From the NCBI GenBank assembly GCA_964527235.1, contig CAZGNC010000001.1, forward strand, positions 170,344 through 234,343: a stretch of DNA of 64,000 nt. Reading direction: 5' to 3'. The position numbers were made by a program, and so were the translations under genes. The notes below the pieces were generated by a model. The model was not told the origin of the DNA. It did no database searches and saw nothing but the letters and a program-made list of their open reading frames with translations. Source of the DNA: an uncultured Candidatus Saccharibacteria bacterium (GTDB taxonomy: Bacteria > Patescibacteriota > Minisyncoccia > Phycocordibacterales > UBA9973). This document shows, piece after piece, positions 1 through 31,775 of this stretch; positions within the stretch are counted from its first letter, which is position 1; the number at the start of each line of letters is the position of its first letter.

Positions 1-608
1 GTGCTCACATTGAACAAGGCTTAACTGGTGTTGCCAATAAGCTTTCCGTCGAAAAAGAAAAATTAGGACAAGAACGCCACGTGGATTCTTTGACCGGACT
101 TTCTAACGACGTAAAGCCCACACTCGATAGATTAATTAAAGAATTAAGTTTCTCTAAAACAGGGGAAGGCCAACGCCCCTCAAGGCTAGCTGCTGTTATG
201 GTTGTAGCTATGGACTTGAATCGTTTTAAAGAGCTAAACGATACACACGGCCACCAAGCCGGGGATAATGCTCTTGTATTATTTGCTGACAGGGTAAGGT
301 CTTCAACAAGAGAAGGGCATGATATGGTATTTAGGTCCAACAAAAAAGGAGATGAATTTTTAGTAGTTTTACCGATCGAGACAGATCAAGACATCGATCT
401 TCAAAGCTTAGAAGCACTTTTTCAAAAATTAAAACGTGAAATCAATTCTGGGCTTTTCCTTGAGATAGATGACAAGACAACATTTGATTTTTCTGCTGCT
501 ATGGGATATTCAGTTCTTACAAGAAGTGGCCGAGAAAAATCAGTAGAAGACCTACTAGTAAAGGCTGATGAGGAGATGTATAAAGATAAAAGATCATCTA
601 AAAAATAA
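1..608 (+). CDS. GGDEF-domain protein (diguanylate cyclase-like), 5'-partial; signature reads KKGDEF rather than GG(D/E)EF
   Basis: Reading frame is open from the window start; motifs DLNRFKELNDTHGHQAGDNAL and RSNKKGDEFLVVLP match the GGDEF fold; a GTG at 81 is only an internal start. Confidence 0.6.
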   Translation, partial: AHIEQGLTGVANKLSVEKEKLGQERHVDSLTGLSNDVKPTLDRLIKELSFSKTGEGQRPSRLAAVMVVAMDLNRFKELNDTHGHQAGDNALVLFADRVRSSTREGHDMVFRSNKKGDEFLVVLPIETDQDIDLQSLEALFQKLKREINSGLFLEIDDKTTFDFSAAMGYSVLTRSGREKSVEDLLVKADEEMYKDKRSSKK

Positions 609-6327: not shown

Positions 6328-6909
6328 TTAACGTTTTTCAATTTCTTTTAAAATTTTAGGTATCTTCTTAAAGTCTGTTATTAGCGTCTCACGCATACCG
6401 CCGTTGTATAGCGCTGCTGCGGGGTGATAGAGTGCGAAGAAATATTTGGTAGGCATTCCTGCGAATTGTTTGATTAGGAGTTTGCCATGAGCTTGAGAAA
6501 TTTGTTCAGCAGGGAAGAAGTTGTTCATTGCGTGTCGTCCTAGGAATACTATAAGCTTGGGTTCTATCATCTTCAGTTCTTCTAGAAGCCATTCTCGACA
6601 ATCAGTCTTTTCTTGGGGTAATGGATCGCGATTATTTGGAGGGCGGTATTTTACTATGTTGGTGATGTATATATCTTCACGTTTTAATTTTATTTCTGCG
6701 AGCATTTCTCCCAAGAATTTCCCCGCAGCGCCGACGAAGGGTATACCTTTCTCATCTTCGTTTCGGCCAGGTGCTTCACCGATGAAAACAATTTCAGCCT
6801 CGGCACTACCATCTCCGGGGACTGCTTGCTTGGCAGTTTTCCTAAGTTCGCATTTGCATTCTGCAATCCATTTCTGATTTAGTTGATCGAGTTTTTCTTT
6901 TTTAGTCAC
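6328..6909 (-). CDS. uracil-DNA glycosylase, family 4; probable GTG start, leaderless
   Basis: Motifs ECKCEL (Fe-S Cys pair), GEAPG and HPAAALY; the upstream 90 codons of the 291-aa track ORF are read-through into the GC-rich island; TATAAT sits 7 nt upstream of the GTG. Confidence 0.65.
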   Translation of the reverse strand: MTKKEKLDQLNQKWIAECKCELRKTAKQAVPGDGSAEAEIVFIGEAPGRNEDEKGIPFVGAAGKFLGEMLAEIKLKREDIYITNIVKYRPPNNRDPLPQEKTDCREWLLEELKMIEPKLIVFLGRHAMNNFFPAEQISQAHGKLLIKQFAGMPTKYFFALYHPAAALYNGGMRETLITDFKKIPKILKEIEKR

Positions 6910-6947
6910 GTGATAAATTATACCAATTTCTGTATATAAAAGACGTA

Positions 6948-6976
6948 GCCCCGCGGTAGCAGGGCTACGCGCGGGG
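6948..6976 (-). terminator. GC-rich hairpin plus T-run on the minus strand (terminator of the 56-aa island gene)
   Basis: gccccgcggtagc-agg-gctacgcgcgggg followed on the minus strand by cgtctttta. Confidence 0.45.
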
Positions 6977-6988
6977 CTGGTGATCAGA

Positions 6989-7159
6989 TCAACGCCAGTG
7001 TGCCTGGCCGTTGTAGCCACGGCGTTCGAGCGCGCGGCCTTCGTCTGGGGGCATCTTGAATGCGCCGAGGCTGGTGTAGGCGGTTGCCACTTCAGGTCGT
7101 GGCTGTTCGCCTGGGATGGTTGGCACGACCTTGTTTTCGGATGTGGTGCTGTCGGACAT
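6989..7159 (-). CDS. hypothetical small protein (56 aa) in GC-rich island 1
   Basis: SD GGAGGA 6 nt upstream of ATG; TTGACA-N18-CATAAT promoter upstream; hairpin terminator downstream; no family recognised (MSDSTTSENKVVPTIPGEQPRPEV...). Confidence 0.4.
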   Translation of the reverse strand: MSDSTTSENKVVPTIPGEQPRPEVATAYTSLGAFKMPPDEGRALERRGYNGQAHWR

Positions 7160-7202
7160 TGTGATCCTCCATGGGGAACGGGGTGGGGGTGTTCTGTGCT
7201 CA

Positions 7203-7262
7203 ATTATGCATATATAAGTACATATTGTCAAAGCTTGCCAAGTGGCGAAAAGAGTGTATAAA
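7203..7262. promoter_or_regulatory. divergent promoter region of island 1 (minus: TTGACA-N18-CATAAT; plus: TTGCCA-N16-TATAAA)
   Basis: AT-rich 60-bp gap between two divergent GC-rich ORFs; overlapping -35 elements tgtcaa/ttgcca. Confidence 0.35.
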
Positions 7263-7308
7263 TAAAAAAGGCGCAGGTGGGGTTCACTCTGACTTAGGAG
7301 GCGATTTC

Positions 7309-7617
7309 ATGTATGTATTGCTGAGGCAACCAGCGTTCGCGTTGGTGCAACACCCGAAGGGTATCGGGGATCCTGAAACTGCGAGGATCATCGAGTTCTT
7401 TCAGGCTCACCCGGGCGTAATGGTGATCCTGGTCAGGATCGGGTCTGTTCAGGAGAAAGAGCTTCGGAGTGTTTCTGAACAGACAGGCAAAGGGACGTTG
7501 GTTGTCGTACTCGAGTACAGTATGATTGGCAAGTCTCAGTACGTGACTAGCGCAATCAACCCAAGTGACGAAGTCCTCGCACAATACCTCCGAGACTATT
7601 TCGAGGGTGGGATGTAG
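7309..7617 (+). CDS. hypothetical protein (103 aa) in GC-rich island 1
   Basis: SD TAGGAGG 7 nt upstream of ATG; internal start of the 148-aa track ORF; MYVLLRQPAFALVQHPKGIGDPETARIIEFF...; no family recognised. Confidence 0.45.
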   Translation: MYVLLRQPAFALVQHPKGIGDPETARIIEFFQAHPGVMVILVRIGSVQEKELRSVSEQTGKGTLVVVLEYSMIGKSQYVTSAINPSDEVLAQYLRDYFEGGM

Positions 7618-8054
7618 TCTGGGCTTCTGCGTACCTCCCGTCGTCGAAGTAAGACGGCGGGAGGGGAAGGGAATGGTTCTTTTGTAAAAGTTAAATAGTG
7701 TGTTATCGCGGCCTCGGGAATTTATTCTCGGGGTTTTTTGGTGGAAAAATTTTGTACGCTGTTTGTGTGGTCTGGAAACAATCAAAAAGCGCCACTCCGA
7801 GGAGCGGCGCCGTACGACCGTTTGAAGGCTGGTCGTCTTACCTTTGCGCGAGCTTGTCAGCGCCATCGCCCGGTGAGGTATGGGAGACTCATACCCAGCA
7901 ACCGACCATAGGAGTAGTAGTAGTCGTGGGCATATTCCACCTCGCGGTTGCCCCTGACTTGCCAACTACGCAATGTGACAATCATTGTTACTTCCCACAC
8001 CACTATCATTCTTGCCTCCGGGTAGGGGGGGGTGAGTGAGAGTTCGCTACTGGC

Positions 8055-8252
8055 TCATTGAGCGATGAGGCCCCACAGACGAGTCAGAGCGAAATAGAAG
8101 ATACCAACCACCACGACAATGATGAGCAGTACTGCTAAACCCGCAGTCATGTCTTTGGCGGCCCTCTCGGCATCTTCTCCACAGAACCCCAGCATGCCGG
8201 GAATAAGTAAGGCGGGACATCCCGCCATCGCGAAAACCCAGAACCAGTACAT
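8055..8252 (-). CDS. small membrane protein (65 aa, two hydrophobic helices) in GC-rich island 1
   Basis: SD GGAGGG 4 nt upstream of ATG (MYWFWVFAMAGCPALL...LAVLLIIVVVVGIFYFAL); TTGACT-N17-CAATAT promoter at ~8290-8330. Confidence 0.45.
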   Translation of the reverse strand: MYWFWVFAMAGCPALLIPGMLGFCGEDAERAAKDMTAGLAVLLIIVVVVGIFYFALTRLWGLIAQ

Positions 8253-8381
8253 TAGCCCTCCAGGTAGATTAGTGGGATTGGGATGCACTACAATCTAGTT
8301 CATATATTGTCACATTTATACATAAAAGTCAAGTTAAACGAAACTGCAGGGGGCGCGAGAAAGCTTGCGGGGATTTGCATG

Positions 8382-8426
8382 CTTCGTACGCTGAGTTTAC
8401 GTGGGCCACAAAAGCCCTACAGAGAA
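8382..8426. repeat. partial third copy of the tRNA-Glu-associated conserved block, fused to a 12-nt tRNA-Glu 3'-end-like fragment
   Basis: cttcgtacgctgagtttacgtgggccacaa matches copies at 8970 and 30749 with 4 mismatches; ccctacagagaa matches the tRNA-Glu 3' region at 30913-30924. Confidence 0.4.
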
Positions 8427-8457
8427 ACGCGAGTACGCTTTCGGGAGGCTGGGTACG

Positions 8458-8853
8458 CTATAGGGTTACCTCTTTTTTGACTGCTTGCTCAACTTTTTGA
8501 AGAAAACCCTCGGGGATTTCTTCTGCAGTATCAATTTCTGAGAAAACATGTTTGAGGCGTTCTATTTTTTCTCTAACTTCTTGTGCCTTTTGGGCCTCTC
8601 CAGCTTCTTCGTAGTATGTAATGTTAACTTTCAACAGACGCAAAATAGAATCAAGTGATGCCTTTACATCTTTTATAGGCCAAGGTTTATATTCGTCGGG
8701 AATAGCAATGATCATTCCTCTTACTAATACTTTCATGCTTGTTAATACAGCACCATTAGTATCTCTAACGTACTCAGCTAGTTTGTCTGGTGTGTAGTCA
8801 GGAATGTGTTCAGATTTTTGCGGGGTCATCGGAGGTCTTTCGAATTTATCCAT
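8458..8853 (-). CDS. hypothetical protein (131 aa)
   Basis: AT-rich host-like ORF with no recognisable domain; flanked by copies 1 and 3 of the conserved block. Confidence 0.5.
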   Translation of the reverse strand: MDKFERPPMTPQKSEHIPDYTPDKLAEYVRDTNGAVLTSMKVLVRGMIIAIPDEYKPWPIKDVKASLDSILRLLKVNITYYEEAGEAQKAQEVREKIERLKHVFSEIDTAEEIPEGFLQKVEQAVKKEVTL

Positions 8854-8969
8854 AAATTTAGTGTTATTTAATTTATTATTAATAAATAATTTTATAATAT
8901 GTAAAAAATGATGTCAATTTATCTAAACACCAGTAGAAGTCAGAATGTTGCAAGATACAATAAAATTTT

Positions 8970-9047
8970 GAGTGCTTCGCACGCAGAGTTTGTGTGGGCC
9001 ACAATAATTTGCTCGTCGTCACTCGCAAATTTTCCAGCCCCGGACTC
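8970..9047. repeat. conserved 78-nt block, copy 1 (3' side of tRNA-Glu-TTC)
   Basis: gagtgcttcgcacgcagagtttgtgtgggccacaataatttgctcgtcgtcactcgcaaattttccagccccggactc; 77/78 identical to 30749-30826; further similarity at ccgtcttcacaaa. Confidence 0.5.
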
Positions 9048-9096
9048 AGTTGTTTTTCTTGCTAGAAAAACATACTTCCGTCTTCACAAAGCACAG

Positions 9097-9124
9097 AAAA
9101 AGAGCACAGCAGTGTGCTCTTTTT
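9097..9124 (-). terminator. bidirectional intrinsic terminator hairpin after tRNA-Glu
   Basis: aaaaa-gagcaca-gcag-tgtgctc-ttttt: perfect 7-bp stem with A/T runs on both sides. Confidence 0.6.
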
Positions 9125-9139
9125 CATGTACGTGCTTTG

Positions 9140-9211
9140 TGACCCCACAGAGAATCGAACTCTGATTACCGCCTTGAAAAGGCGATGTCCTAACCGTTAG
9201 ACGATGGGGCC
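9140..9211 (-). tRNA. tRNA-Glu (anticodon TTC)
   Basis: Reverse complement GGCCCCATCGTCTAACGGTTAGGACATCGCCTTTTCAAGGCGG...TTCGATTC...TGGGGTCA folds as a cloverleaf with anticodon loop TTTTCAA. Confidence 0.85.
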
Positions 9212-9279
9212 GTATGGCCAAGTGTTTTACTTAGCAGAAATATAATAACATTTTTTATCTAAATTGCAAAAATGCGAAA

Positions 9280-9309
9280 CCCCCACCCGGCGTATTGCGC
9301 GGGCGGGGG
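9280..9309 (-). terminator. hairpin plus T-run terminating the CheY/2-TM operon on the minus strand
   Basis: cccccacccg-gcgtattgcg-cgggcggggg (9 of 10 bp paired), followed on the minus strand by tttcgcattttt. Confidence 0.45.
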
Positions 9310-9329
9310 CTGTGATGATTCCTGCTTGG

Positions 9330-9704
9330 CTAGCAGGGGGGTTGAGGGTTGATGATCGCCTCGATCTTCTCCTTGAGCAGATGTGGTGTGAACGGCTTGA
9401 CGATGTAGTTGTTCACGCCTGCCTGGACCGCCGCGATGATGTCTTCTTTCGCGCTGCTGGTAGTTACCAGCAGTATGGGTACCGACTTGCCGTCGGGACG
9501 AGCACGGAGCTTGCGAATGCACTCGATGCCGGACATGACTGGCATGTTCCAGTCGACGATGACGAAATCAATCGTCTTGTCGAACTTCGTGAGTGCTTCG
9601 AAGCCATTGCTGGCCTCGACGAAATCGACGTAGCCGATCTTCTCGAGCGAGGTGGTGATGATTCGGCGCATTGTGGCGGAATCATCAACGACGAGGAATT
9701 TCAT
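9330..9704 (-). CDS. CheY-like single-domain response regulator receiver protein (GC-rich island 2)
   Basis: 124 aa; canonical receiver residues DD (7-8), phospho-acceptor D in VIVDWNMP, T in LLVTT, K in IVKPF; no output domain. Confidence 0.75.
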   Translation of the reverse strand: MKFLVVDDSATMRRIITTSLEKIGYVDFVEASNGFEALTKFDKTIDFVIVDWNMPVMSGIECIRKLRARPDGKSVPILLVTTSSAKEDIIAAVQAGVNNYIVKPFTPHLLKEKIEAIINPQPPC

Positions 9705-9729
9705 GTTCTTCTCCTGTTGATGAGTGGCC

Positions 9730-9933
9730 TCAGCTCTTCTTCTTGAACAAACCCCATGCGGTCAGTCCAATCGCGATTACCGCCATGACGGTGAACAAGA
9801 TCGCTAGATCGACGGCGGGCTCTTTTTTGGTCTTGATTGCAAGGTGCCAAATCAATGCTGCCGTCGCCACGAGACATCCCGCAATCCATCCCATCAATAG
9901 AACACTGATGTTCTTGTTCGTCAATTTCGGCAT
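9730..9933 (-). CDS. small 2-TM membrane protein (67 aa), co-transcribed upstream of the CheY gene
   Basis: SD AGGAGG 7 nt upstream of ATG (MPKLTNKNISVLLMGWIAGCLVATAALIW...VMAVIAIGLTAWGLF); internal start of the 99-aa track ORF. Confidence 0.45.
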   Translation of the reverse strand: MPKLTNKNISVLLMGWIAGCLVATAALIWHLAIKTKKEPAVDLAILFTVMAVIAIGLTAWGLFKKKS

Positions 9934-10000
9934 GAATACTCCTCCTGGTTGTCGAAGGGGACAGGTCAGGGTGACCAATTCCCAGGTGCTTCCGATGTAA

Positions 10001-10029
10001 AGTATAGCACATTTTGACCCTTTTGTCAA
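10001..10029 (-). promoter_or_regulatory. sigma70-like promoter TTGACA-N17-TATACT (minus strand) with a palindrome over the -35 element
   Basis: Minus-strand TTGACAaaagggtcaaaatgtgcTATACT; inverted repeat TTGAC-aaaaggg-GTCAA overlaps the -35. Confidence 0.4.
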
Positions 10030-10136
10030 AGGGTATTTTATGGAAAAATTATAACCTTATGGTATAAAGAAAGTGAGTATTAGATAGTTCTGTTGGTGTA
10101 GGCAATCACCCCGCACAAGCATGGAGGTATTACGTC

Positions 10137-10322
10137 ATGCATCACGATCTTCCGGCAGGGCAAGAACACAAACGTTGCGAGCGTTGCGCTCGCAGTACTT
10201 TGCACGACGAGAATGTCTGCCAGGAGTGTGGACTTTCTGCCCCTTCAGGGCAAGTGCATGGGGCATCAATTTCCGGTGGCCAGGCGACTGCCTGGTCAAA
10301 TGGATCCGCAACCGACCAATGA
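10137..10322 (+). CDS. small zinc-ribbon-like protein (61 aa; CxxC...CxxC)
   Basis: SD GGAGGT 8 nt upstream of ATG; CERCARSTLHDENVCQECG. Confidence 0.4.
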   Translation: MHHDLPAGQEHKRCERCARSTLHDENVCQECGLSAPSGQVHGASISGGQATAWSNGSATDQ

Positions 10323-10332
10323 GGAAGAGAAG

Positions 10333-10527
10333 ATGGCTGACAGCAAGAATTCCGAAGGCGATGCGGTGAGAGGAGAGATCGAATCTTTGCGTGCAGATCT
10401 AGCGTCGTCTCCCAAGGATCCGATCGTGATTCCATCGCTCGATATCATTGGGCGATCACACCCTTTGCACCCTGATTTTGAGCCGACGGCTGTGTCGCTC
10501 ACCAATGATCGTCGTCTCACCAAGTGA
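10333..10527 (+). CDS. hypothetical acidic small protein (64 aa)
   Basis: SD GAGGAAGAG upstream of an internal ATG of the 104-aa track ORF; MADSKNSEGDAVRGEIESLRADL... Confidence 0.3.
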   Translation: MADSKNSEGDAVRGEIESLRADLASSPKDPIVIPSLDIIGRSHPLHPDFEPTAVSLTNDRRLTK

Positions 10528-10536
10528 GGTGATCGC

Positions 10537-10743
10537 ATGCCCCCACATTCGCACAAGAAAGGCAATAAGCCTCGCCGCGGAAAGAGGGAGCGCAGAGAGG
10601 CGAAACTGCAGGCCAAGCGATATGAAGAAGCAGCTCGGCGTCTTCGTGAACAAGGCCACAGCGGGAATATGAACGACGGCAGTCGGACGTACCAGGGTCC
10701 CACCTGGGGTCATCAAAGCCGGCGAAGGAGTAATTCGAAGTAG
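10537..10743 (+). CDS. highly basic small protein (68 aa, Lys/Arg-rich)
   Basis: SD GAGGTGA 5 nt upstream of ATG; MPPHSHKKGNKPRRGKRERREAKLQAKRYEEAARRLRE... Confidence 0.4.
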   Translation: MPPHSHKKGNKPRRGKRERREAKLQAKRYEEAARRLREQGHSGNMNDGSRTYQGPTWGHQSRRRSNSK

Positions 10744-10756
10744 AGGGAGAATCGAA

Positions 10757-10800
10757 GCGAGGGGCGTCAAACAACCGACGCCACCTCGCTTTTCCTTTTT
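10757..10800 (+). terminator. intrinsic terminator of the island-2 plus-strand operon
   Basis: gcgaggggcgtc-aaacaacc-gacgcc(a)cctcgc followed by ttttcctttttt. Confidence 0.55.
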
Positions 10801-10827
10801 TATGTGGCGTGTTAGTTTTATTAATAC

Positions 10828-10914
10828 GGAGGCGTGGCTGAGTGGTTGAAGGCACCGGTTTCGAAAACCGGCATTGGGGAAACCTAATCGTGAGTTCAAA
10901 TCTCACCGCCTCCG
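10828..10914 (+). tRNA. tRNA-Ser (anticodon CGA)
   Basis: GGAGGCG...CGCCTCC acceptor; anticodon stem-loop CCGGT-TTCGAAA-ACCGG; long variable arm; T-loop TTCAAAT. Confidence 0.85.
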
Positions 10915-10917
10915 CTT

Positions 10918-11844
10918 TTATTTCGTATGTATCGCCAGATATATATCTTCTAGCGCACGAACTGCATCACCTGCGGCTATGTTGTTCTGGTGATACAGGA
11001 TATCTGTGCAGTCACCAGCGGCCCAGATGCCTGGGGTTTCTGTCTTCTGATTCAAGGGGTTTATTTTTATGCGATTTTGTTCGTCCATAGGTACTACACC
11101 TTTCGCAAATCCTGTGTTCGGTATTTGCCCGATTTCTACGAATATTCCAGTAGCTTGCAGCTCTACAGTCTCGCCGGTGGTTTTGTCTTTATAGATTATA
11201 CCGTTGACGAATTGATCTCCAGTGACTTCTAGAATATCTACATTCTTTACTGCTTTCATTTTTGGATTCTTGAGAACTTTCTCAACAGTGACTTCGTCTG
11301 CTCTAAATTCTTCACTGCGATGAAGTAGTGTTACAGAATTGCAGTATGCTAGTAGTTGCGCAGCGCTTTCAAATCCTGCATTGCCTCCACCGATCACAAC
11401 TACGTCTTGCCCGTCGAAAAGTGGCCCATCACAAGAAGCACAGTAAGTTAGTCCCTTGTGTTCGAATTTATCTGCATTCTTAGCTTCAAGTTTGCGACGT
11501 CCACTACCGGCAGCTATGAGTATGGTTTTTGTATCAAAAGTTTTCCCTGATTCGATGCCCACAGTAAAAAGCTCACCATTCTTAGTGATAGAAGTGGCTT
11601 TCTCTCCTTGCTGTATTTCTAGGCTTTCTCCTGCGTTGGCTTCTACGTGTTTTCTTAAGTTCTCGGCGAGTTCGTTACCAGCGATAGATACCGAGCCTAT
11701 CCAGTTATATATCTTCTCAGACACGACAGATTGCCCACCCCATTCAGAAGTGATGAGTAATGTTTTTAGCTTTTTACGTGCAGCATAAACCGCCGCAGAA
11801 GTGCCGGCAGGTCCACCGCCAACTATTATCAAATCATGGGTCAT
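10918..11844 (-). CDS. trxB: thioredoxin-disulfide reductase
   Basis: 308 aa; FAD motif GGGPAG; redox-active CASCDG (CxxC); NAD(P)-binding GGGNAG. Confidence 0.85.
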   Translation of the reverse strand: MTHDLIIVGGGPAGTSAAVYAARKKLKTLLITSEWGGQSVVSEKIYNWIGSVSIAGNELAENLRKHVEANAGESLEIQQGEKATSITKNGELFTVGIESGKTFDTKTILIAAGSGRRKLEAKNADKFEHKGLTYCASCDGPLFDGQDVVVIGGGNAGFESAAQLLAYCNSVTLLHRSEEFRADEVTVEKVLKNPKMKAVKNVDILEVTGDQFVNGIIYKDKTTGETVELQATGIFVEIGQIPNTGFAKGVVPMDEQNRIKINPLNQKTETPGIWAAGDCTDILYHQNNIAAGDAVRALEDIYLAIHTK

Positions 11845-11883
11845 TTCTGTATTATAGCAGATACGTCAAGAACGTAGAAATTT

Positions 11884-13125
11884 TTATTTTTTATTTCTGC
11901 GTAGAAAAGCAGGTACAGCGCTCCAGTCGCCACCATCGTCATCGATTATTATTTCCTCGATAGGTTCTGGCTTTTTCTCAGTTCTCTTTATGAATTCGTT
12001 GTTTAGGTTTGTGGTGGTGTTGATTGTAGGGGTAGGGGTGACAGGTGCTGAAGTGTTTTGCTGGATAGTGTTATGAATTTCTTTTTTGATTACTGCAGGG
12101 GCTTCGTCTTTAACTAGTGTCTGAGTAGCTATAGTGCCGTTGCCTCCAAATAGGTTCTTGCGAGGAGCCTCACCGCCGAAACTTGTAGCGATGACAGTAA
12201 CGCGTAGTTCACCCTTCTTTAATTTCTCATCGCGGATAGTACCGAATATAACTTTCGCATCTTTGTCGATTGACTCGGTTATTATTTTCGCAGCTTCTTG
12301 AATTTCGTGAATTGTTACATCGTCGCCACCAGATATTGCGAATAGTACGCCCTTAGCGCCGTGGATAGAGACTTCAAGTAGGGGAGAATTGATAGCTTGC
12401 AATGCTGCTTTCTCTGCGCGCTTCTCACCTGAAGCAGAGCCTACACCCATGAGTGCGCTACCTGCGTCAGCCATGATGGCCTTGATGTCAGCGAAGTCTA
12501 CGTTGATAACACCCGGAGTAGTAATAAGGTCTGAAATTCCTTCTACAGCTTGGCGTAATACGTCGTCGCATCTTGAGAAAGCGTCTTTGAAGTTGGTGTC
12601 TTTGTCTGCGAGCTGTATTAGCTTGTCGTTAGGTATGGTGATGATAGCGTCGACTTCCTTGGCAAGTTCTTCGATGCCTTTCTCAGCGATTCGCATTCTC
12701 TGAGTACCTTCGAAGAAGAAAGGTTTAGTAGTAACTGCGACAGTAAGTATACCTTGTTCTTTTGCAGCGCGAGCAACTATCGGGGATGCTCCAGTTCCTG
12801 TACCTCCGCCCATTCCGCACGCGATGAATATCATATCAGCACCCTTTATAACGTCTTGAATTTCTGCTTTAGTTTCTTCTGCAGCTTTTTTACCAATCTC
12901 AGGATTCATACCAGCACCGAGACCTTTGGTTAGGTTTTTTCCGATATGAATTTTCTTTTCAGCGAGTGAGTGATGCAAGTCCTGAGTATCTGTGTTCATA
13001 CAGATAAAAGATATGCCTTTTACTTTAGAATTGATCATGTGGTTGACCGCGTTTTTGCCTGATCCACCGACACCGATGACCACAATTCGAGCGAAGCTTT
13101 CTATTACTGGATTTACTTTTGGCAT
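11884..13125 (-). CDS. ftsZ: cell division GTPase FtsZ
   Basis: 413 aa; tubulin signature GGGTGTG in ACGMGGGTGTGASPIVA; GVGGSGKNAVN N-terminal motif. Confidence 0.9.
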   Translation of the reverse strand: MPKVNPVIESFARIVVIGVGGSGKNAVNHMINSKVKGISFICMNTDTQDLHHSLAEKKIHIGKNLTKGLGAGMNPEIGKKAAEETKAEIQDVIKGADMIFIACGMGGGTGTGASPIVARAAKEQGILTVAVTTKPFFFEGTQRMRIAEKGIEELAKEVDAIITIPNDKLIQLADKDTNFKDAFSRCDDVLRQAVEGISDLITTPGVINVDFADIKAIMADAGSALMGVGSASGEKRAEKAALQAINSPLLEVSIHGAKGVLFAISGGDDVTIHEIQEAAKIITESIDKDAKVIFGTIRDEKLKKGELRVTVIATSFGGEAPRKNLFGGNGTIATQTLVKDEAPAVIKKEIHNTIQQNTSAPVTPTPTINTTTNLNNEFIKRTEKKPEPIEEIIIDDDGGDWSAVPAFLRRNKK

Positions 13126-13234
13126 AGTTTTTATGTGAAATTAATGACTAAACTTGTATATTTTATACACTACCACCCAGGGGTAAAAAAAGCAAAATTT
13201 CGTTTTTTAAGACGAAATACTATAGTACAACAGT

Positions 13235-14398
13235 CTAGGGCATTAGCTGTTTTATGCCTGCTTTTATTGTACTTTTTAGGTCTTTTAGCATATTTGCGAA
13301 GGATCCCGTAGGTACACCTTCACTATCTATATTGGAATTAATCAAGCCCAGGGTGGTGAACCATGCTGGGTCTCTAAGTTTGGTCTTGTTGTTGCCGAAC
13401 ATGTCAGTAGTAGCGACTCTTGATGGTAATTTCAATGATTCTTTAGAATAAGTTGCCAGTCCTGGGATATTTGCACTACCACCGATGAATACTATACCCG
13501 CTGGTAGGAGTTCGTTCCTTTTTATTTTCTTTAAATGATTTTCTATTAGTTCGAAAATATCAGAAAGTCTTGCTTCGATTATTTCATCCAATTTTTTCTT
13601 AGAATAATCTTCTACACCATTTCCTAGTTTTAGATTCTCTGCTTCTTCTAGTGAAATCTTGAGTCCAAGCGCGATGTCGTTGGTGACGTCACCACCTCCG
13701 ATAGAGAAAGTGTGAAGCGATACCAATGAACCGTTTTCAAATACCGCAAGCGATACTGTCTCAGAACCGATGTTTACTAATGCAGAGCCAGCAATCTTTT
13801 GTTTTGGAGAGAGCGCAATGTGGCTAGAGGCAATAGGGGAAGGTATCACATCTATGGGCTTTACTCCGGCCTCGGTAATGACTGAAAGTAGGTCATCTAG
13901 GTGCTGGCTAGAGCAGGTTACGAAAAGGGTTTTGACCTCGAGCTTGGTGCCCTTCATGCCCTCTGGTCGGCCTAGGATTTCCTTGCCGTCGAGTTTAAAC
14001 GACATAGGGAATACTTGGATAACTTTCTTATTATTTAAGCTTAAATTGTCTTCTGAGTCTTCTATGGCTCTCTCTATATCTAGGTGGGTGACTTCGCCGT
14101 CGGCCTTAGAAACTATCGCTTCACCGGTGCTGAGGTCTCCTCGTAGTGTTACTCCACCTACTGCCACGAAGGCGCGTCTAATTTTAATATCTGAAGTTTT
14201 CTCTGCGATAGCGACTGCTTGTTTGACTGAATGTACTGCGAGTGATGAGTCTACGATATAGCCATGGCGCATGCCCTCGGTTGGAGCTTCTCCAACGCCA
14301 ATAACTTTAGGATCTTTTTCTCCCTTTAGAAATTCTGCTACCACTACTCTCGTTACCGAGGACCCCACGTCGATCCCGATAGAAATATTTCTTATCAT
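13235..14398 (-). CDS. ftsA: cell division protein FtsA (actin-like ATPase)
   Basis: 387 aa; N-terminus IGIDVGSSVTRVVVAE and actin-fold motifs; lies directly upstream of ftsZ on the same strand. Confidence 0.85.
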   Translation of the reverse strand: MIRNISIGIDVGSSVTRVVVAEFLKGEKDPKVIGVGEAPTEGMRHGYIVDSSLAVHSVKQAVAIAEKTSDIKIRRAFVAVGGVTLRGDLSTGEAIVSKADGEVTHLDIERAIEDSEDNLSLNNKKVIQVFPMSFKLDGKEILGRPEGMKGTKLEVKTLFVTCSSQHLDDLLSVITEAGVKPIDVIPSPIASSHIALSPKQKIAGSALVNIGSETVSLAVFENGSLVSLHTFSIGGGDVTNDIALGLKISLEEAENLKLGNGVEDYSKKKLDEIIEARLSDIFELIENHLKKIKRNELLPAGIVFIGGSANIPGLATYSKESLKLPSRVATTDMFGNNKTKLRDPAWFTTLGLINSNIDSEGVPTGSFANMLKDLKSTIKAGIKQLMP

Positions 14399-14741
14399 AT
14401 TTTTGTTCTGCTCTTTCCATTATACTGCCATGTTGCATTCCTTTCAAATGAAGCATTCCGTGGATAACTAAAAATCCTAAAAGTTCATCGTAATTTTTAT
14501 CAAATTTTTTTTCTTTTACTTCTTTTTTTACAACTTCGGGGCAGATGATAAGTTCGCCTTCTTTTTTAGAAAAATAAAAAGACAGAACGTTGGTAGGTTT
14601 GTCTTTCTGGCGGTACTGTTTATTTATTTTGCGAGACTGTGTAGGGGAGACGAAGGCAAAGGATAAATCATAATCCTTGCCTAGGATATCGTTCTTGAGA
14701 GTTTCGATAAGACTATTCCATTTTTTACTTAATCTTTCCAA
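14307..14741 (-). CDS. ybeY: rRNA maturation endoribonuclease YbeY
   Basis: 144 aa; zinc motif HGMLHLKGMQHG (HxxxHxxxxxH); the 3' end overlaps the ftsA start by ~92 nt in a different frame. Confidence 0.7.
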   Translation of the reverse strand: MERLSKKWNSLIETLKNDILGKDYDLSFAFVSPTQSRKINKQYRQKDKPTNVLSFYFSKKEGELIICPEVVKKEVKEKKFDKNYDELLGFLVIHGMLHLKGMQHGSIMERAEQKYDKKYFYRDRRGVLGNESSGSRISKGRKRS

Positions 14742-14952
14742 GTTTGCGGAGCTTTTCGATTTCCTTGCGATGGCCCATTCTCTTTAGAGCACTTTTCTTT
14801 ACTTTAAGCTTAGATTCTTTTCTTTCGTTATATCGGGAGTTCTTTACTTTGTGGATTATGCCTGATTCCTGAATTCGGCGAGAAAAACGGCGCAATACGC
14901 TTGCGTTGTTTTCATTGTTGTTCTTCTTTACTTCGATTACTGTTTTTGCCAT
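14725..14952 (-). CDS. rpsU: 30S ribosomal protein S21 (bS21)
   Basis: 75 aa, very basic; MAKTV...VLRRFSRRIQESGII...ALKRMGHRKE matches bS21. Confidence 0.8.
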   Translation of the reverse strand: MAKTVIEVKKNNNENNASVLRRFSRRIQESGIIHKVKNSRYNERKESKLKVKKSALKRMGHRKEIEKLRKLGKIK

Positions 14953-15121
14953 ATAGTTTAATTCGCCCCTCGGGAACTCCTAGGGACTAGAATAGAATAT
15001 CATAAAAAAAATTTATAGCAAGCCGAGGAATTGCTATAACGACGTACTGAGCAAAGCTCTGCGATCGTGCATGGGTGCTCTAAAATTGACTATTGGCCTA
15101 AAAAAAGATAAAATTTCCTTT

Positions 15122-15595
15122 ATGAAACAAGACAAAACTGTGAATTATATAACGGCGGAAAAGAAAAAAGAGCTTGAAGCAGAACTTACAGACCTAAAAG
15201 GACCTAAAAGGAAGGCTATATTAGAAGCCCTAGAATATGCGAAGTCTCTTGGCGATTTGTCTGAAAACGCTGAATACCACCAGACTCGAGAGGATCAGGG
15301 CAAGCTCGAAGAGCGTATCGCGAAAATAGAGAATGTCCTACAGTCTTCTCTGGTAGTATCTTCCAAAGGTGGCGACGAGATAGGCGTTGGCTCTAAGGTA
15401 GTTGTGCAGAAAGTCGGCACTAAAGAAGAAAAGTCATATCAGATCGTAGGTAGTGAAGAAGCAGACATGGCTCAAGGTAAAATTTCTAACCGCTCTCCAT
15501 TCGGCGAGGCAATCTTCGGCAAGAAAAAGGGAGAAAGTTTCTCTTTCAAAACTCCAAGTGGAACTGTTGATTACAAAATAATAAGTGTTGCTTAA
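15122..15595 (+). CDS. greA: transcription elongation factor GreA
   Basis: Coiled-coil N-terminus (ITAEKKKELEAELTDLKG) and C-terminal FKBP-like domain (SPFGEAIFGKKKGESFSFKTPSGTVDYKI); start chosen at the internal Met of the 174-aa track ORF. Confidence 0.8.
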   Translation: MKQDKTVNYITAEKKKELEAELTDLKGPKRKAILEALEYAKSLGDLSENAEYHQTREDQGKLEERIAKIENVLQSSLVVSSKGGDEIGVGSKVVVQKVGTKEEKSYQIVGSEEADMAQGKISNRSPFGEAIFGKKKGESFSFKTPSGTVDYKIISVA

Positions 15596-15605
15596 ATTAA
15601 TTTAA

Positions 15606-17090
15606 ATGTCTTCAATTGATGAAATTAGAGATGTTAGACTCGCAAAATTAGAAATTCTAAAACAGAAAGGTGTGAATCCTTACCCGTCCGAGTCTAAGAG
15701 AGAGATGTCTCTGATTGATGCTATAAAAGATTTTGAAAAATTAGAAAAAGAAGGTGTAGATAAATGGGTCTCTGGGCGTGTGATGTCTATCCGTGGGCAA
15801 GGAGCCATAGTTTTCATTACTCTATATGATGGTACTGCGTCCTTTCAGGCATTACTCAAGAAAGATGTTTTAGGAGAAGATAAGCTTGCATTCTGGGGTG
15901 AGGTTGCCGATATCGGAGACTTCGTAGAAGTGCAGGGTAAATTCTTCACTACTCAAAGAGGCGAGAAGACAGTCGAGGTCAAGGATTGGCGTATGTTATC
16001 TAAGAGTTTGCGACCATTGCCTGAGAAATGGCATGGGCTTGTTGACGAAGAAACTAAATTCCGCAAAAGATATCTCGATATCCTAACTGATCCTAAGACT
16101 AAAGAAATTTTCATACAGAAAAATATTTTCTGGGCATCCTTTAGAGACTTCATGGTTCGTAAAGGATTCCTAGAACTCGAAATGCCCGTACTCGAGTCGA
16201 CTCCTGGTGGAGCAGAGGCGGAACCATTCAAGACCCATCACAACGCTCTCGATGAAGATTTCTATTTGCGTATATCTTTAGAGCTACCACTTAAGAAAAT
16301 GCTAGTGGCGGGTTATGAGAAAGTTTTTGAAATAGGAAGAATCTTTCGTAACGAAGGAATATCTGCAACACATTTGCAAGACTATACTCAGATGGAATTT
16401 TACTGGGCTTATTCAGACTTCGATGAGTTGATGAGTTTCTCTGAAGAGATGTATCAATACGTAATAGAGAAGACCTTCGGCACCCTAACCATAACCGCTA
16501 AAGACGAGACCATAGACTGGAGTGGTAAATGGGATAGAGTGAACTACGTAGATTTGTTTAAGGAAAATACAGGTATCGACCTTGAGACTGCCAGCGACAA
16601 GGATTTGAAAGATTACTTAGACAAGAATCATGTGAAGTACGAAGACTTCGTGAAGCGCGGACGATTGATAGATCTAGTTTTCAAAGATATTCGCAAGAAG
16701 GGTATCAAGTGGCAGGGTGCGAAACCAAACAAGCCGTTCTTCTTGATCAATCAACCAATAGAGCTTGAGCCACTTGCGAAGAAAGATGAAAAGAATCCAA
16801 AGCTCGTGCAGAGAATGCAGATTATTGCTTATGGCACAGAACTCGGTAAAGGTTTCGGTGAATTAAATGATCCTATTGATCAACGCGATAGATTTGAATC
16901 TCAAATGAAACTTCGTGAAGCAGGGGACGTAGAGGCGCAGATTCTTGATGAGGACTATGTAGAGGCTATGGAATACGGCATGCCACCATGCGTAGGCTTT
17001 GGCGTAAGTGAAAGACTATTTAGTGTACTTAAAGATATATCAGTTAGGGAAGGAGTGATATTCCCAACGATGAAGTCTAGGAAGGATTAG
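15606..17090 (+). CDS. lysS: lysine--tRNA ligase (class II)
   Basis: 494 aa; N-terminal OB anticodon-binding domain plus class II motifs (FRNEGISATHLQDYTQMEFY..., GFGVSERL). Confidence 0.9.
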   Translation: MSSIDEIRDVRLAKLEILKQKGVNPYPSESKREMSLIDAIKDFEKLEKEGVDKWVSGRVMSIRGQGAIVFITLYDGTASFQALLKKDVLGEDKLAFWGEVADIGDFVEVQGKFFTTQRGEKTVEVKDWRMLSKSLRPLPEKWHGLVDEETKFRKRYLDILTDPKTKEIFIQKNIFWASFRDFMVRKGFLELEMPVLESTPGGAEAEPFKTHHNALDEDFYLRISLELPLKKMLVAGYEKVFEIGRIFRNEGISATHLQDYTQMEFYWAYSDFDELMSFSEEMYQYVIEKTFGTLTITAKDETIDWSGKWDRVNYVDLFKENTGIDLETASDKDLKDYLDKNHVKYEDFVKRGRLIDLVFKDIRKKGIKWQGAKPNKPFFLINQPIELEPLAKKDEKNPKLVQRMQIIAYGTELGKGFGELNDPIDQRDRFESQMKLREAGDVEAQILDEDYVEAMEYGMPPCVGFGVSERLFSVLKDISVREGVIFPTMKSRKD

Positions 17091-22490: not shown

Positions 22491-22510
22491 AAGGTTTTCC
22501 ACATTTTGTT

Positions 22511-22539
22511 TTGACTAAAATTTTCTAAATATACATAAT
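22511..22539 (+). promoter_or_regulatory. sigma70-like promoter TTGACT-N17-CATAAT driving GC-rich island 3
   Basis: ttgactaaaattttctaaatatacataat, followed by a 5'-UTR hairpin tctccag...ctggaga (22546-22579). Confidence 0.4.
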
Positions 22540-22604
22540 TAAAGTTCTCCAGCATTCTCGAACTGGTTGAGACTGGAGATTCGCTCTTTCGTCGGAGGTT
22601 TCTC

Positions 22605-22703
22605 ATGGCCGCGAAGCTGAAGATGAGTCGGAAACACGGTGTCATCACCTGTGGCCGGAACCATCAGTGCGTCGGCGCCAAGCGCAATCGCCGCAACCGC
22701 TGA
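22605..22703 (+). CDS. basic 32-aa peptide with two Cys (MAAKLKMSRKHGVITCGRNHQCVGAKRNRRNR)
   Basis: SD GGAGGT 8 nt upstream of ATG; strong GC3 bias; followed by a 9-bp-stem hairpin agaccaccg...cggtggtct (22776-22805). Confidence 0.3.
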   Translation: MAAKLKMSRKHGVITCGRNHQCVGAKRNRRNR

Positions 22704-22831
22704 TGCCGCGGATCAACCAAAGGGAACGTTCGCCCCCGAACGCTCCGCCCTGGTAAGGGGAATCATGGGGGGTACAGACCACCGTCGCTTCGGCGCCGGT
22801 GGTCTCTCTCATTTATGGGAGATTTTAAATA

Positions 22832-22863
22832 TAAAAACAAACGCCGGCTCGAGGTGAGCCGGC
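22832..22863 (-). terminator. hairpin plus T-run terminator of the island-3 minus-strand gene
   Basis: gccggctc-gaggt-gagccggc with, on the minus strand, gtttgttttt downstream. Confidence 0.45.
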
Positions 22864-22894
22864 GGGACGCGATGGGGTTCGGTAGGCGTGGTGC

Positions 22895-23083
22895 CTACTT
22901 TTTTTTGTGGACAAACGACACGATCCACATGAGCCCTCCTAGGATCGCAAGGATTCCCAGGAGGAAAAAGTGCCAGAATGTGCCCAATGAGAACTTCGTC
23001 GGGCCGGGGATTGGGCTGTGCGGGCCCTGGTTGAGCTTTGAGTTGATGTTCTCAAACGGCACGTGATCCAGACGCATGTTCAC
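22895..23083 (-). CDS. small C-terminally anchored membrane protein (62 aa) in GC-rich island 3
   Basis: SD GAGGTGA 4 nt upstream of ATG; ...TFWHFFLLGILAILGGLMWIVSFVHKKK; terminator immediately after the stop. Confidence 0.45.
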   Translation of the reverse strand: MNMRLDHVPFENINSKLNQGPHSPIPGPTKFSLGTFWHFFLLGILAILGGLMWIVSFVHKKK

Positions 23084-23168
23084 CTCAGGTTGGGGTGCGA
23101 GTCTTTTCTTACTTTGACATAAAAAGCTTAAAAATCAAAACCCTTAGAGGTTTTCCACAGCTGACTAG

Positions 23169-30682: not shown

Positions 30683-30748
30683 GACCGAATTGTATCACAA
30701 TCATTAAAAATAGAAGATTTAGAAATTGGGGTCAGGTACTATTTATTT

Positions 30749-30826
30749 GAGTGCTACGCACGCAGAGTTTGTGTGGGCCACAATAATTTGCTCGTCGTCA
30801 CTCGCAAATTTTCCAGCCCCGGACTC
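30749..30826. repeat. conserved 78-nt block, copy 2 (3' side of tRNA-Glu-CTC)
   Basis: 77/78 identical to 8970-9047; same orientation and same position relative to its tRNA-Glu. Confidence 0.5.
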
Positions 30827-30909
30827 GGCTATTCACGTACTCGTGAATTATGCCTCCGTCTTCACAAAACGCTCATAAATAAAGCAGTTTATTTACTTTG
30901 CGCGTTTTG

Positions 30910-30981
30910 TGACCCTACAGAGAATCGAACTCTGATTTGATCCTTGAGAAGGATCCGTCCTAGCCGTTAGACGATAGGGCC
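30910..30981 (-). tRNA. tRNA-Glu (anticodon CTC)
   Basis: Reverse complement GGCCCTATCGTCTAACGGCTAGGACGGATCCTTCTCAAGGATC...TTCGATTC...TAGGGTCA; anticodon loop TTCTCAA. Confidence 0.85.
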
Positions 30982-31087
30982 ATATAAAACATCTAGACCT
31001 ATCGTCCTGAAAACCTGAACGGGCGATAGGCCCAATAAGGAAAAGATAACATTTTTAAAATAAAAATCAAAAGCAGGGAAGGTGTGT

Positions 31088-31116
31088 TTGACTTTTGGGT
31101 AATATACTATATAATA
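31088..31116 (+). promoter_or_regulatory. sigma70-like promoter TTGACT-N16-TATAAT driving the island-5 plus-strand operon
   Basis: ttgacttttgggtaatatactatataat ~80 nt upstream of the first island ORF. Confidence 0.45.
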
Positions 31117-31197
31117 TTATACAGTATATGTAGGTACATTGTAAGACCAGTCGGCCACAAACGGTTGATTGGAACCTGAACACAGGAGTCGCACCGC

Positions 31198-31386
31198 ATG
31201 ATGAGGGTTGTTATGAAGCCGAGAAAGACAACTCAAGAAACAATCACGTTTCTTCGAGAGGGGGTAGAAATCACTTTATCCTCTCCGGTTGTTGCCATCG
31301 TTCCCGACGAGGAACGGCTGGAGTTTCTTTCTGACTCGCGCGTCGTTATCAGTCCCCGCGTCGATATTGCGACGCTTGTGAGTTGA
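31198..31386 (+). CDS. hypothetical small protein (62 aa) in GC-rich island 5
   Basis: SD AGGAG 9 nt upstream of ATG; MMRVVMKPRKTTQETITFLREGVEITLSSPVVAIVPDEERLEFL... Confidence 0.4.
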   Translation: MMRVVMKPRKTTQETITFLREGVEITLSSPVVAIVPDEERLEFLSDSRVVISPRVDIATLVS

Positions 31387-31396
31387 ATCGCCACCT

Positions 31397-31420
31397 GGCC
31401 CCCGCGACGTCGCGGGGGCC
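31397..31420. repeat. perfect 24-nt palindrome GGCCCCCGCGACGTCGCGGGGGCC in the intercistronic gap (operator or RNA hairpin candidate)
   Basis: Self-complementary over all 24 nt; no T-run follows; sits 23 nt upstream of the next SD. Confidence 0.5.
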
Positions 31421-31443
31421 TCACTGCTTAAGGAGGATATCAC

Positions 31444-31689
31444 ATGCAGACCAGGATTGAAGTAACTATCCTCAGTGACGGGCGGGTGCAGGTGGATGAG
31501 AACGGGCAGAAGTCCGTGATCACTCCACAGTCGAATGGGTTCATGTTCGCGATGAATATCAACGGGGACTACTCCCTGACCATCAGCGATCCGAAGCCGG
31601 AGCCGGCGATCCTTCCACGTGTGCCCTTGTCGAGTCTCAGTTGCTTCGACGGGGGGTTGCTTTTTCCGGAGGGAGGTGGCAACCCATGA
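31444..31689 (+). CDS. hypothetical protein (81 aa) in GC-rich island 5
   Basis: SD AAGGAGGA 7 nt upstream of ATG; MQTRIEVTILSDGRVQVDENGQKSVITPQSNGFMFAMNINGDYSL...; stop overlaps the next start (ATGA). Confidence 0.45.
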   Translation: MQTRIEVTILSDGRVQVDENGQKSVITPQSNGFMFAMNINGDYSLTISDPKPEPAILPRVPLSSLSCFDGGLLFPEGGGNP

Positions 31690-31775
31690 TCCTGCTCTTG
31701 ATGTGGGTCATCGTGGCAATCTTCGGCGGGTGGCTCGTCATGCACTCTGCCGAGTGCAAGTGGGCCGACGAGTAG
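31686..31775 (+). CDS. 29-aa hydrophobic membrane peptide (MILLLMWVIVAIFGGWLVMHSAECKWADE), translationally coupled to the upstream gene
   Basis: ATGA start/stop overlap with the upstream ORF; single TM helix; below the 60-aa threshold of the ORF track. Confidence 0.35.
   Translation: MILLLMWVIVAIFGGWLVMHSAECKWADE

Follow-up and report, generated by a model that had tools for sequence, protein, structure and literature searches.

A CheY-family receiver with foreign codon usage in a conserved, clade-restricted locus between two tRNA genes of a Patescibacteria genome

We analyzed a stretch of 64,000 nucleotides (hereafter the window; positions 170,344 to 234,343 of contig CAZGNC010000001.1, assembly GCA_964527235.1) from a metagenome-assembled genome (MAG) labelled as an uncultured Candidatus Saccharibacteria bacterium, and focused on a small GC-rich island between the genes of tRNA-Glu(TTC) and tRNA-Ser(CGA). 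The island encodes a single-domain receiver of the CheY family and four other small open reading frames (ORFs), arranged in two divergent operons on either side of a central control region (Table 1). On the minus strand, the gene of a two-helix membrane protein precedes that of the receiver. On the plus strand lie the genes of a putative zinc-ribbon (Zn-ribbon) protein and of a very basic protein, separated by an ORF described as acidic. This anatomy had been proposed in a preliminary description made from the sequence, and most of it was recovered: both tRNA genes were found by ARAGORN and Rfam, the five ORFs have the coordinates claimed and a GGAGG-like Shine-Dalgarno sequence before every start, the minus operon has its TTGACA-N17-TATACT promoter with a palindrome over the -35 element, its first protein has two hydrophobic helices, and it ends in a GC-rich hairpin. 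The two tRNA genes are divergent, so that the segment between them meets the 5' end of each. The 3' end of the tRNA-Ser gene touches the stop codon of a thioredoxin-reductase-like (TrxR) gene (10918-11844, minus strand). On the other side, a second promoter-like site is predicted upstream of tRNA-Glu, within the AT-rich spacer that separates the terminator from this tRNA.

Table 1. Features of the island and its borders, in window coordinates
Feature	Position	Strand	Remarks
tRNA-Glu(TTC)	9139..9211	-	Left border; ARAGORN and Rfam (61 bits)
Promoter-like site TTTGCA-17-TATTAT with TG	9242..9270	-	9 of 12 consensus positions; prediction
GC-rich hairpin terminator, minus operon	9278..9311	-	-28 kcal/mol, z = -5.7; 0 of 200 shuffles as stable
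Clade-specific C-terminal tail of the receiver	9330-9347 (window); 158-175 (L095); also in P0002-P0004		[NR]-P-x-x-P-C
Single-domain CheY-family receiver, 124 aa	9330..9704	-	Pfam PF00072, PDB, NCBIfam
Two-helix membrane protein, 67 aa	9730..9933	-	Upstream of the receiver, same predicted transcript
AT-rich central control region, ~165 bp	9939..10105	.	Includes the divergent promoters of the two operons and the minus-operon 5' leader
Sigma-70-type promoter TTGACA-17-TATACT with TG extension	10001..10029	-	11 of 12 consensus positions
Perfect palindrome ACCCTTT-TGTC-AAAGGGT (ACCCTTTTGTCAAAGGGT)	10017..10034	.	Overlaps the -35 element
Candidate extended -10 element TGGTATAAA, plus operon	10061..10069	+	Inferred, read from sequence
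Zn-ribbon protein, 61 aa	10137..10322	+	C-x2-C-x3-TLHD-x3-C-x2-CGL
'Acidic' ORF, 64 aa, pI 5.1	10333..10527	+	Shine-Dalgarno present; gene status uncertain
Very basic protein, 68 aa, pI 11.7, 20 K+R	10537..10743	+	Homologues in L091 and L095
Hairpin and U-tract terminator, plus operon	10757..10801	+	Hairpin 10757-10789, -29.5 kcal/mol, z = -6.0
tRNA-Ser(CGA)	10828..10915	+	Right border; ARAGORN and Rfam

The receiver matches the Pfam family Response_reg with 94.5 bits (cut-off 30.2, E = 5.6e-27) over profile positions 2-111 of 111. Among the 50 matches listed from solved structures, 49 are CheY proteins. The best is CheY1 of H. pylori (3gwg, 6e-38), followed by the CheY of E. coli, Salmonella, and Vibrio. 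In the alignment with CheY structures, D7/D8, D51, T81, Y100, and K103 correspond to D12/D13, D57, T87, Y106, and K109 of E. coli, and the motifs DWNMP and KPFT are present. The acidic pair, aspartate, threonine, and lysine of a canonical receiver are thus all in place as announced, including the phospho-acceptor (D51), and the residues of the phosphorylation pocket are likewise kept in the orthologues from the related locus L095 (see below). The top NCBIfam family is also CheY (NF007901), at 118.3 bits, which is below the equivalog cut-off of 189 of this model built on enterobacterial-type CheY. By these comparisons, the protein is a true member of the CheY family and not a generic receiver. 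We label it a CheY-family single-domain receiver of foreign origin, which is safe, as the name 'chemotaxis CheY' would claim too much.

The base composition of the island is deviant. Its GC content is 0.50-0.60 in windows of 100 nt, against ~0.35-0.45 in the flanks, and the GC content at third codon positions (GC3) is 0.77 in the receiver and 0.66 in the membrane-protein gene for 0.30-0.40 in host genes. The relatives of the receiver point in the same direction as the foreign composition noted in the preliminary description. The best ~33 loci among GTDB representatives are nearly all from Gemmatimonadota (58-69% identity). Below them come Bacteroidota, Ignavibacteria, and Kapaibacteria, at no more than 61% identity, and Patescibacteria are absent from the best 80. 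A search of 5.8 billion proteins returned, under ~75% identity, many matches labelled CheY by their source, and the few of these with a taxon label are from Gemmatimonadetes or Gemmatimonadaceae. The relatives at ~70% identity whose contigs we inspected sit in clusters of the type fliD-fliS-fliT-flgM-cheY-cheZ-like. Hence, the nearest proteins outside the clade are Gemmatimonadota CheYs of flagellar clusters, with 62-69% identity for the closest in genomes. The GC3 of Gemmatimonadota cheY genes is mostly 0.82-0.97, higher than that of the window receiver, so the copy in this lineage of the candidate phyla radiation (CPR) looks partly ameliorated. Taken together, a Gemmatimonadota-like donor is probable, albeit not proven. 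When the remainder of the island was compared in six frames with 84 fetched loci, of which almost all were CheY loci, there was no match outside cheY, and the idea that remnants of donor flagellar genes persist in the island was rejected.

Orthologous loci were identified in three related lineages, represented by L091 (a contig from ENA), L093 and L094, and L095 (GCA_964606435.1). All share the flanks of the island: tRNA-Glu at one border, and tRNA-Ser and TrxR at the opposite one. The nucleotide identity of L091 to the window is 84-89% across 11 kb of housekeeping genes. Beyond its TrxR and tRNA-Ser genes come the terminator known from the window, a basic-protein homologue, a Zn-ribbon protein, the control region (92% identical to that of the window), and the start of a membrane protein. 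L093 and L094 overlap the end of L091 and continue with the membrane protein, a receiver with 75% identity, the GC-rich hairpin of the minus operon, identical in sequence to that of the window, and tRNA-Glu. In L095, a single contig holds tRNA-Glu, the receiver, the membrane protein, the control region, two Zn-ribbon proteins, the basic protein, the terminator, tRNA-Ser, and TrxR. No empty tRNA-Glu/tRNA-Ser site was seen in these three lineages, which are a small sample. The synonymous divergence (dS, Nei-Gojobori) between the window and L095 is 0.74 for the receiver, within the range of 0.53-1.09 observed for FtsZ and TrxR, which implies that the gene was already present when the lineages split. 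The receivers of the clade have a single origin, since they are monophyletic in 195 of 200 neighbor-joining (NJ) bootstraps. On these alignments, the locus is an old, vertically inherited component of the clade, not a recent insertion. Within the organism of the window itself, Logan contigs assembled from two other sequencing runs (SRR14271365 and SRR14271372) match positions 9371-15633 and 9835-13786 with 100% identity, and run from GreA, FtsA, FtsZ, and TrxR through tRNA-Ser into the island.

Codon comparisons show purifying selection on the receiver. The ratio of non-synonymous to synonymous divergence (dN/dS) is 0.24 against the L095 orthologue and 0.15-0.27 over all comparisons with measurable dS. 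Between lineages, the receivers are 73-75% identical, the basic proteins 46-54%, the Zn-ribbon proteins 42%, and the membrane proteins 31%, for 99% in FtsZ and 97% in TrxR. The α4-β5-α5 face of CheY is where FliM, CheZ, and the P2 domain of CheA bind. Among 65 CheYs of the Gemmatimonadota type, 70 alignment columns reach a conservation of 90% or more. The window receiver departs from the consensus at 7 of the 70 and the L095-type receiver at 14, of which 11 fall at E. coli positions 89-113. The face changes of this sister lineage (L095 and P0002-P0004) include I95V, Y106F, F111I, and T112S. At the 11 face positions changed there, the window receiver is off consensus at only 2, and its residues at E. 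coli positions 95, 103, 105, 106, and 111-113 are those of the group consensus. The receivers of the clade also share a new C-terminal tail, [NR]-P-(Q/R)-(P/E)-P-C (NPQPPC in the window), of which cysteine is the last residue. This tail is absent from the 116 other best homologues.

The membrane protein is the first gene of the minus operon. An AGGAGG Shine-Dalgarno sequence precedes its ATG at 9933, and a longer version of 99 residues started by TTG is spurious since its start falls inside the -35 hexamer. Its hydrophobicity profile has two peaks, and AlphaFold predicts a helical hairpin (H6-34 and H39-66) with a mean local confidence score (pLDDT) of 76.5. A word-seeded search of 5.8 billion proteins matched only the protein itself. 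Its positional counterparts in L091, L093, and L095 have 99 residues, and 64 columns could be aligned at 31% identity. Such a value does not establish homology. The gene is separated from that of the receiver by 25 nt in the window, and the two overlap (ATGA) in the relatives only.

The control region is the best-conserved part of the locus, with 92-93% identity to L091, L095, and L096. It is nearly invariant from the -35 element of the minus promoter, itself invariant in four lineages, through the Shine-Dalgarno sequence of the membrane-protein gene, and DNA similarity to the relatives ends exactly at the start codon of this gene. The block at 10035-10101, on the side of the plus operon, is conserved at 84% in L095, L096, and L097. 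The motif CCCTTYGACAA occurs twice on the minus strand, at 10023-10033 within the palindrome and at 9949-9959, immediately ahead of the Shine-Dalgarno sequence. It has no other occurrence in the 64 kb, where 0.11 in total would be expected, and none of 100 shuffles contained two copies. Both copies are conserved in the relatives. We infer that the pair represents candidate operator sites, and that the divergently encoded Zn-ribbon and basic proteins would be candidate regulators. Searches of the metagenome contigs of the Joint Genome Institute (JGI) for the DNA pattern of the promoter, and for the profile of the basic protein, returned no match. In L095, the palindrome is split (window 10031/10035) by a 1.3-kb insertion (L095 930-2237) of host-like composition, which encodes a low-complexity protein of 300 residues rich in D, Q, E, and R and with a hydrophobic N-terminus.

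The plus operon was described as a trio of zinc-ribbon, acidic, and basic proteins with their own Shine-Dalgarno sequences and a clean terminator. The paired CxxC motifs, the basic character of the last protein, the Shine-Dalgarno sequences, and the terminator are all there, but the second protein is only mildly acidic. The matches of the 61-residue protein to zinc-ribbon families of Pfam are weak and all under the cut-off. A search of 1.84 billion cluster representatives revealed one clear homologue, P0135 (42% identity, E = 1.4e-4), and one weak match outside the clade. P0135 is located in the orthologous locus L095 and shares the full C-x2-C-x3-TLHD-x3-C-x2-CGL pattern, with proportions of non-synonymous and synonymous differences (pN and pS) of 0.35 and 0.78. 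The basic protein is 46-54% identical to its homologues in L091 and L095 (54% for L091), with a dN/dS of 0.23-0.33 and fixed motifs (RRGK-ERREA, GH-GNM, and a GH pair near the basic tail). AlphaFold predicts one long helix (residues 15-40) with disordered tails, and the profile of the protein retrieved two other members among 5.8 billion proteins, both from the same clade. A search of IMG/VR for relatives of the small proteins of the island found none, and they have no significant family in Pfam, PHROG, or PADLOC. The terminator of the operon is 91% conserved in L095, and no shuffled sequence folds as well.

The acidic ORF stands apart. It has no family in Pfam, PHROG, or PADLOC, it lacks a counterpart in L091 and L095, and the GC3 coding signal is absent from it as it is from the rest of the plus-strand trio, which makes its status as a gene uncertain. 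The idea that it is a decayed second Zn-ribbon gene was rejected, as it has no similarity to the matching stretch of L091 or L095. We also considered whether it could carry a CheY-binding peptide of the FliM-N or CheZ-C type. The segment GEIESLRADL is a loose match and this candidate was dropped; the sole strict match of the EIDAL type in the window is in ribosomal protein L25, and the CheZ-like proteins of Gemmatimonadota end in RQALADEIF. Three of the four small ORFs are probably real genes. The membrane, Zn-ribbon, and basic proteins appear to be restricted to the clade, fast-evolving, and under purifying selection.

The window is part of the housekeeping chromosome of a Patescibacteria MAG. 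Apart from the receiver, its large ORFs with a family match are mostly housekeeping: LeuRS, TsaD, LysRS, MraZ/MraW, a penicillin-binding protein, a Mur ligase, FtsA/FtsZ, GreA, an F-type ATP synthase, RF-1, GatB, Obg, and PriA. FtsZ belongs to a 90%-identity cluster named 'Patescibacteria group bacterium' in GenBank. We found no histidine kinase (HisKA, HATPase_c), Hpt, Che, or flagellar gene among the large ORFs of the window, and the related contigs, over their 4-13 kb, likewise lack kinase and chemotaxis genes. This agrees with the preliminary description as regards kinases and chemotaxis genes, which added that no output domain occurs in the window. The latter does not hold since an ORF of the diguanylate-cyclase type (GGDEF, with the motif variant KGDEF) lies at its left edge (3-608, plus strand), and shows that an output-type signalling domain is present. 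This ORF runs off the window, and the N-terminal portion that falls outside may be a sensor or receiver domain. The further proposal of a genome context devoid of two-component signalling is not supported either, since the window represents 64 kb of a contig of 259,673 bp. Nor is the presence of such a receiver as unexpected as had been proposed: CheY-like genes have already been counted, in general terms, in ultra-small MAGs (PMC9938205).

These observations can be assembled in the following scenario. The clade would have acquired a cheY of the flagellar type in a single horizontal transfer, before its known lineages split, and then kept it vertically; the most probable donor is a flagellated bacterium related to Gemmatimonadota and rich in GC. 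The gene would now be part of an accessory locus of the clade, organized around a conserved bidirectional promoter region. One side of this region would drive the fast-evolving membrane protein and then the receiver, and the other an operon for tiny Zn-ribbon proteins and a basic helical protein, all limited to the clade, possibly with regulation through the paired CCCTTYGACAA sites. Given its intact pocket, the receiver is most likely still a phosphorylation-dependent single-domain switch. Its output would probably be re-aimed at a non-flagellar, clade-specific partner, because no flagellar or chemotaxis gene is in view and the face of the sister lineage has drifted; the first candidate is the co-transcribed membrane protein. 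The phosphoryl group would come either from an unlinked kinase or from acetyl phosphate, a known donor for CheY proteins. We regard this scenario, taken as a whole, as somewhat probable. Its separate components, i.e. membership of the CheY family, foreign origin, real linkage to the host chromosome, and vertical inheritance, are each held with much higher confidence.

Several points weigh against the scenario. The dN/dS of the receiver (~0.24) is around 10 times more relaxed than that of housekeeping genes (0.01-0.02), and slow decay in one lineage is possible. Co-transcription is the only link between the receiver and the membrane protein, whose genes do not even touch in the window. The split that groups the CPR and Gemmatimonadota-type proteins against all others is recovered in 65 of 200 NJ bootstraps, and as these are NJ trees of a short protein of 124 residues, the assignment of the donor is weak. 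Finally, no phosphodonor or target was found in the 64 kb, and the term 'orphan' is itself unproven.

The first alternative is that the receiver is an ordinary member of a pathway whose cognate kinase is encoded elsewhere in the genome, either as an orphan histidine kinase or within a Che-like or Chp-like system that controls type IV pili. It is common in bacteria for single-domain receivers to be unlinked, and the window covers about a quarter of its contig. Another signalling protein, of the GGDEF type, is encoded 9 kb away, and the CheY-like genes counted in ultra-small MAGs (PMC9938205) fit this possibility. On the other hand, the nearest relatives of the receiver are flagellar CheYs of another phylum, not receivers of the PilG/PilH type or of CPR bacteria, its codon usage is foreign, and neither flagellar nor chemotaxis genes are reported in published accounts of Patescibacteria genomes (PMC11809585, PMC8080830). 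We consider this alternative unlikely, although it deserves to be kept in mind.

Slightly more doubtful is the view that the locus is a functionless passenger, in which cheY and the small ORFs are decaying relics that are still open. The lack of partner genes in view, the ~10-fold higher dN/dS relative to housekeeping genes, and the erosion of the FliM-binding face in the sister lineage are what one would expect from such relics, as are the absence of a GC3 coding signal in the plus-strand trio and an acidic ORF unique to one lineage. Yet the frames are intact and the catalytic residues are all kept in at least four sequences after a dS of ~0.7, with dN/dS values (0.15-0.3) well under 1. The promoter, the leader, and the terminators are more conserved than the coding sequences, and the new C-terminal tail is conserved clade-wide.

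The preliminary description had presented the island as a tRNA-flanked foreign module, which suggests a recently integrated mobile genomic island, i.e. a strain-specific cassette inserted at tRNA genes. The deviant composition stands, with raised GC and GC3 and tRNAs on both sides, and the neighboring tRNA-Ser is rearranged or replaced in relatives, as in recombination-prone sites. The island-like insertion does not stand. No integrase or recombinase was found in the island or in the window by matches to Pfam, PHROG, or NCBIfam. The island meets the 5' ends of both tRNAs and no 3' end, and the only direct repeat flanking it is a 10-mer, which is at chance level. The locus occupies the same site in three related lineages with a dS equal to that of housekeeping genes. 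Matches in phage DNA, IMG/VR, and plasmids are limited to cheY, those in plasmids being to cheY of Ralstonia megaplasmids. Hence, a recent mobile island is improbable. An origin from phages, plasmids, or defence systems was rejected as well, as there was no phage match and no significant match in PHROGs or PADLOC.

One could also imagine that the receiver is an effector that mimics a host protein: an epibiont would have taken the cheY of its flagellated Gemmatimonadota-like host and would use it to disturb the switching of the motor. For Vampirococcus, a CPR epibiont, faster swimming and more frequent turns have been reported in the host cells that carry it (PMC8080830). The FliM-compatible face is kept in the window lineage, and delivery might use the membrane protein and the cysteine-ended tail. 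The loss of the FliM-type face in the sister lineage argues against this idea, which we consider very improbable. Least probable of all is an assembly chimera or a contamination, in which a fragment of a GC-rich soil bacterium was joined through conserved tRNA sequence: the only other record of the exact receiver is a Logan contig of 1,214 bp (window 9223-10436), which ends 12 nt before tRNA-Glu, and no per-run contig of the same organism spans the tRNA-Glu junction, but the assemblies of SRR14271365 and SRR14271372 cross tRNA-Ser into the island without mismatch, the terminator of the receiver is joined to tRNA-Glu in L094 and L095, and the small-protein operon is contiguous with tRNA-Ser and TrxR in L091 and L095.

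The preferred scenario of a captured and re-aimed switch can be set against known systems. The receiver resembles the CheY of E. coli and CheY1 of H. pylori in its length, in its single receiver domain, and in sequence (E = 6e-38 to 1e-30). Unlike a chemotaxis CheY, it has no CheA, CheW, MCP, CheZ, or FliM nearby, in the window or in the related contigs, its host phylum is generally described as non-flagellated, and it carries the extra NPQPPC tail. The CheYs encoded in Gemmatimonadota clusters are the closest outside the clade, with 62-72% identity and a GC-rich codon style, but in these clusters the neighbors are flagellar genes. In the window, the gene upstream is that of the membrane protein instead of flgM and there is no cheZ-like gene after the receiver. 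The locus also differs from a classical two-component system in that no histidine kinase lies in the operon of the receiver or in its neighborhood.

The stand-alone receivers PilG/PilH, DivK, and CpdR act through protein contacts and are often unlinked to a kinase. These fall in other subfamilies of receivers, and their kinases are known, whereas the window receiver is a recent offshoot of flagellar CheY. Their re-use of a stand-alone receiver is the working model that we would propose, by analogy, for the receiver of the window. Relative to tRNA-associated genomic islands, the locus has the foreign composition, the tRNA borders, and the rearranged tRNA-Ser in relatives, but it has no integrase and no att repeats, it faces tRNA 5' ends, its site is fixed, and its inheritance is vertical. 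In other words, it departs from tRNA-targeted islands in every defining respect but composition. Since orphan single-domain receivers and horizontal transfer into CPR bacteria are both established, the locus is not a new kind of system.

Gene borrowing and the invention of small new genes are thought to balance massive gene loss in CPR bacteria, and this locus shows both. A signalling switch from another phylum has been under selection since the lineages parted, in organisms expected to lack its usual partners. Two aspects deserve attention: the retention of a flagellar-type CheY in a lineage expected to have no flagella, and an almost frozen promoter placed before hyper-variable tiny proteins that exist only in the clade. 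The locus thus provides a concrete and testable case of the re-wiring of CheY without flagella. The signal of the donor may further hint at the associates of these epibionts, possibly Gemmatimonadota.

The tRNA genes at the borders have a history of their own. The tRNA-Ser(CGA) beside TrxR is a rearrangement hot spot (window 10828-10917, L091 12290-12522, L095 3200-3330). In L091, a tRNA-Ser of 100% identity is inverted and ~20 nt of the old 3' end are left by the stop codon of TrxR. In L095, a different tRNA-Ser(CGA) occupies the site, and 12 nt of the original 3' end are still present. Such rearrangements, replacements, and remnants indicate that the site is prone to recombination. The tRNA-Glu by the receiver has the anticodon CTC in L094 (549-602), one base different from the TTC of the window (9158-9211) and of L095 (1-51), and as the coverage of L094 is only ~1.5x, this may be a sequencing error. 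On the side of tRNA-Glu, a module of ~250 bp is duplicated in the window (8967-9215 and 30746-30985). It consists of an element of 88 nt, a spacer, and a tRNA-Glu gene, with anticodon TTC in the first copy (9139-9211) and CTC in the second (30909-30981). The two copies of the 88-nt element are 95% identical, and a third, partial copy of 32 nt lies at 8380-8411. A search of Rfam assigned the element to no family, its fold on the minus strand is moderate (z = -2.8), and the per-run assemblies break within it, at 9007.

The window contains four further GC-rich islets (6950-8460, 22500-23100, 31000-33100, and 57000-57400), with a GC content of 0.51-0.56 for ~0.40 in the genome. They are packed with small ORFs whose products often look hydrophobic on visual inspection, and the islet at 31000-33100 is on the 5' side of the second tRNA-Glu. 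We found no similarity of the islets among themselves or to the island studied here, and no Pfam family in the ORFs scanned. Close to the first islet, an ORF of the uracil-DNA-glycosylase (UDG) family (6328-7203, minus strand) has, in its longest frame, a GC-rich N-terminal extension of ~100 residues rich in proline, alanine, and serine, which reaches the islet at 7000-8500. The UDG domain begins at residue 129, and the true start codon of this ORF is probably internal.

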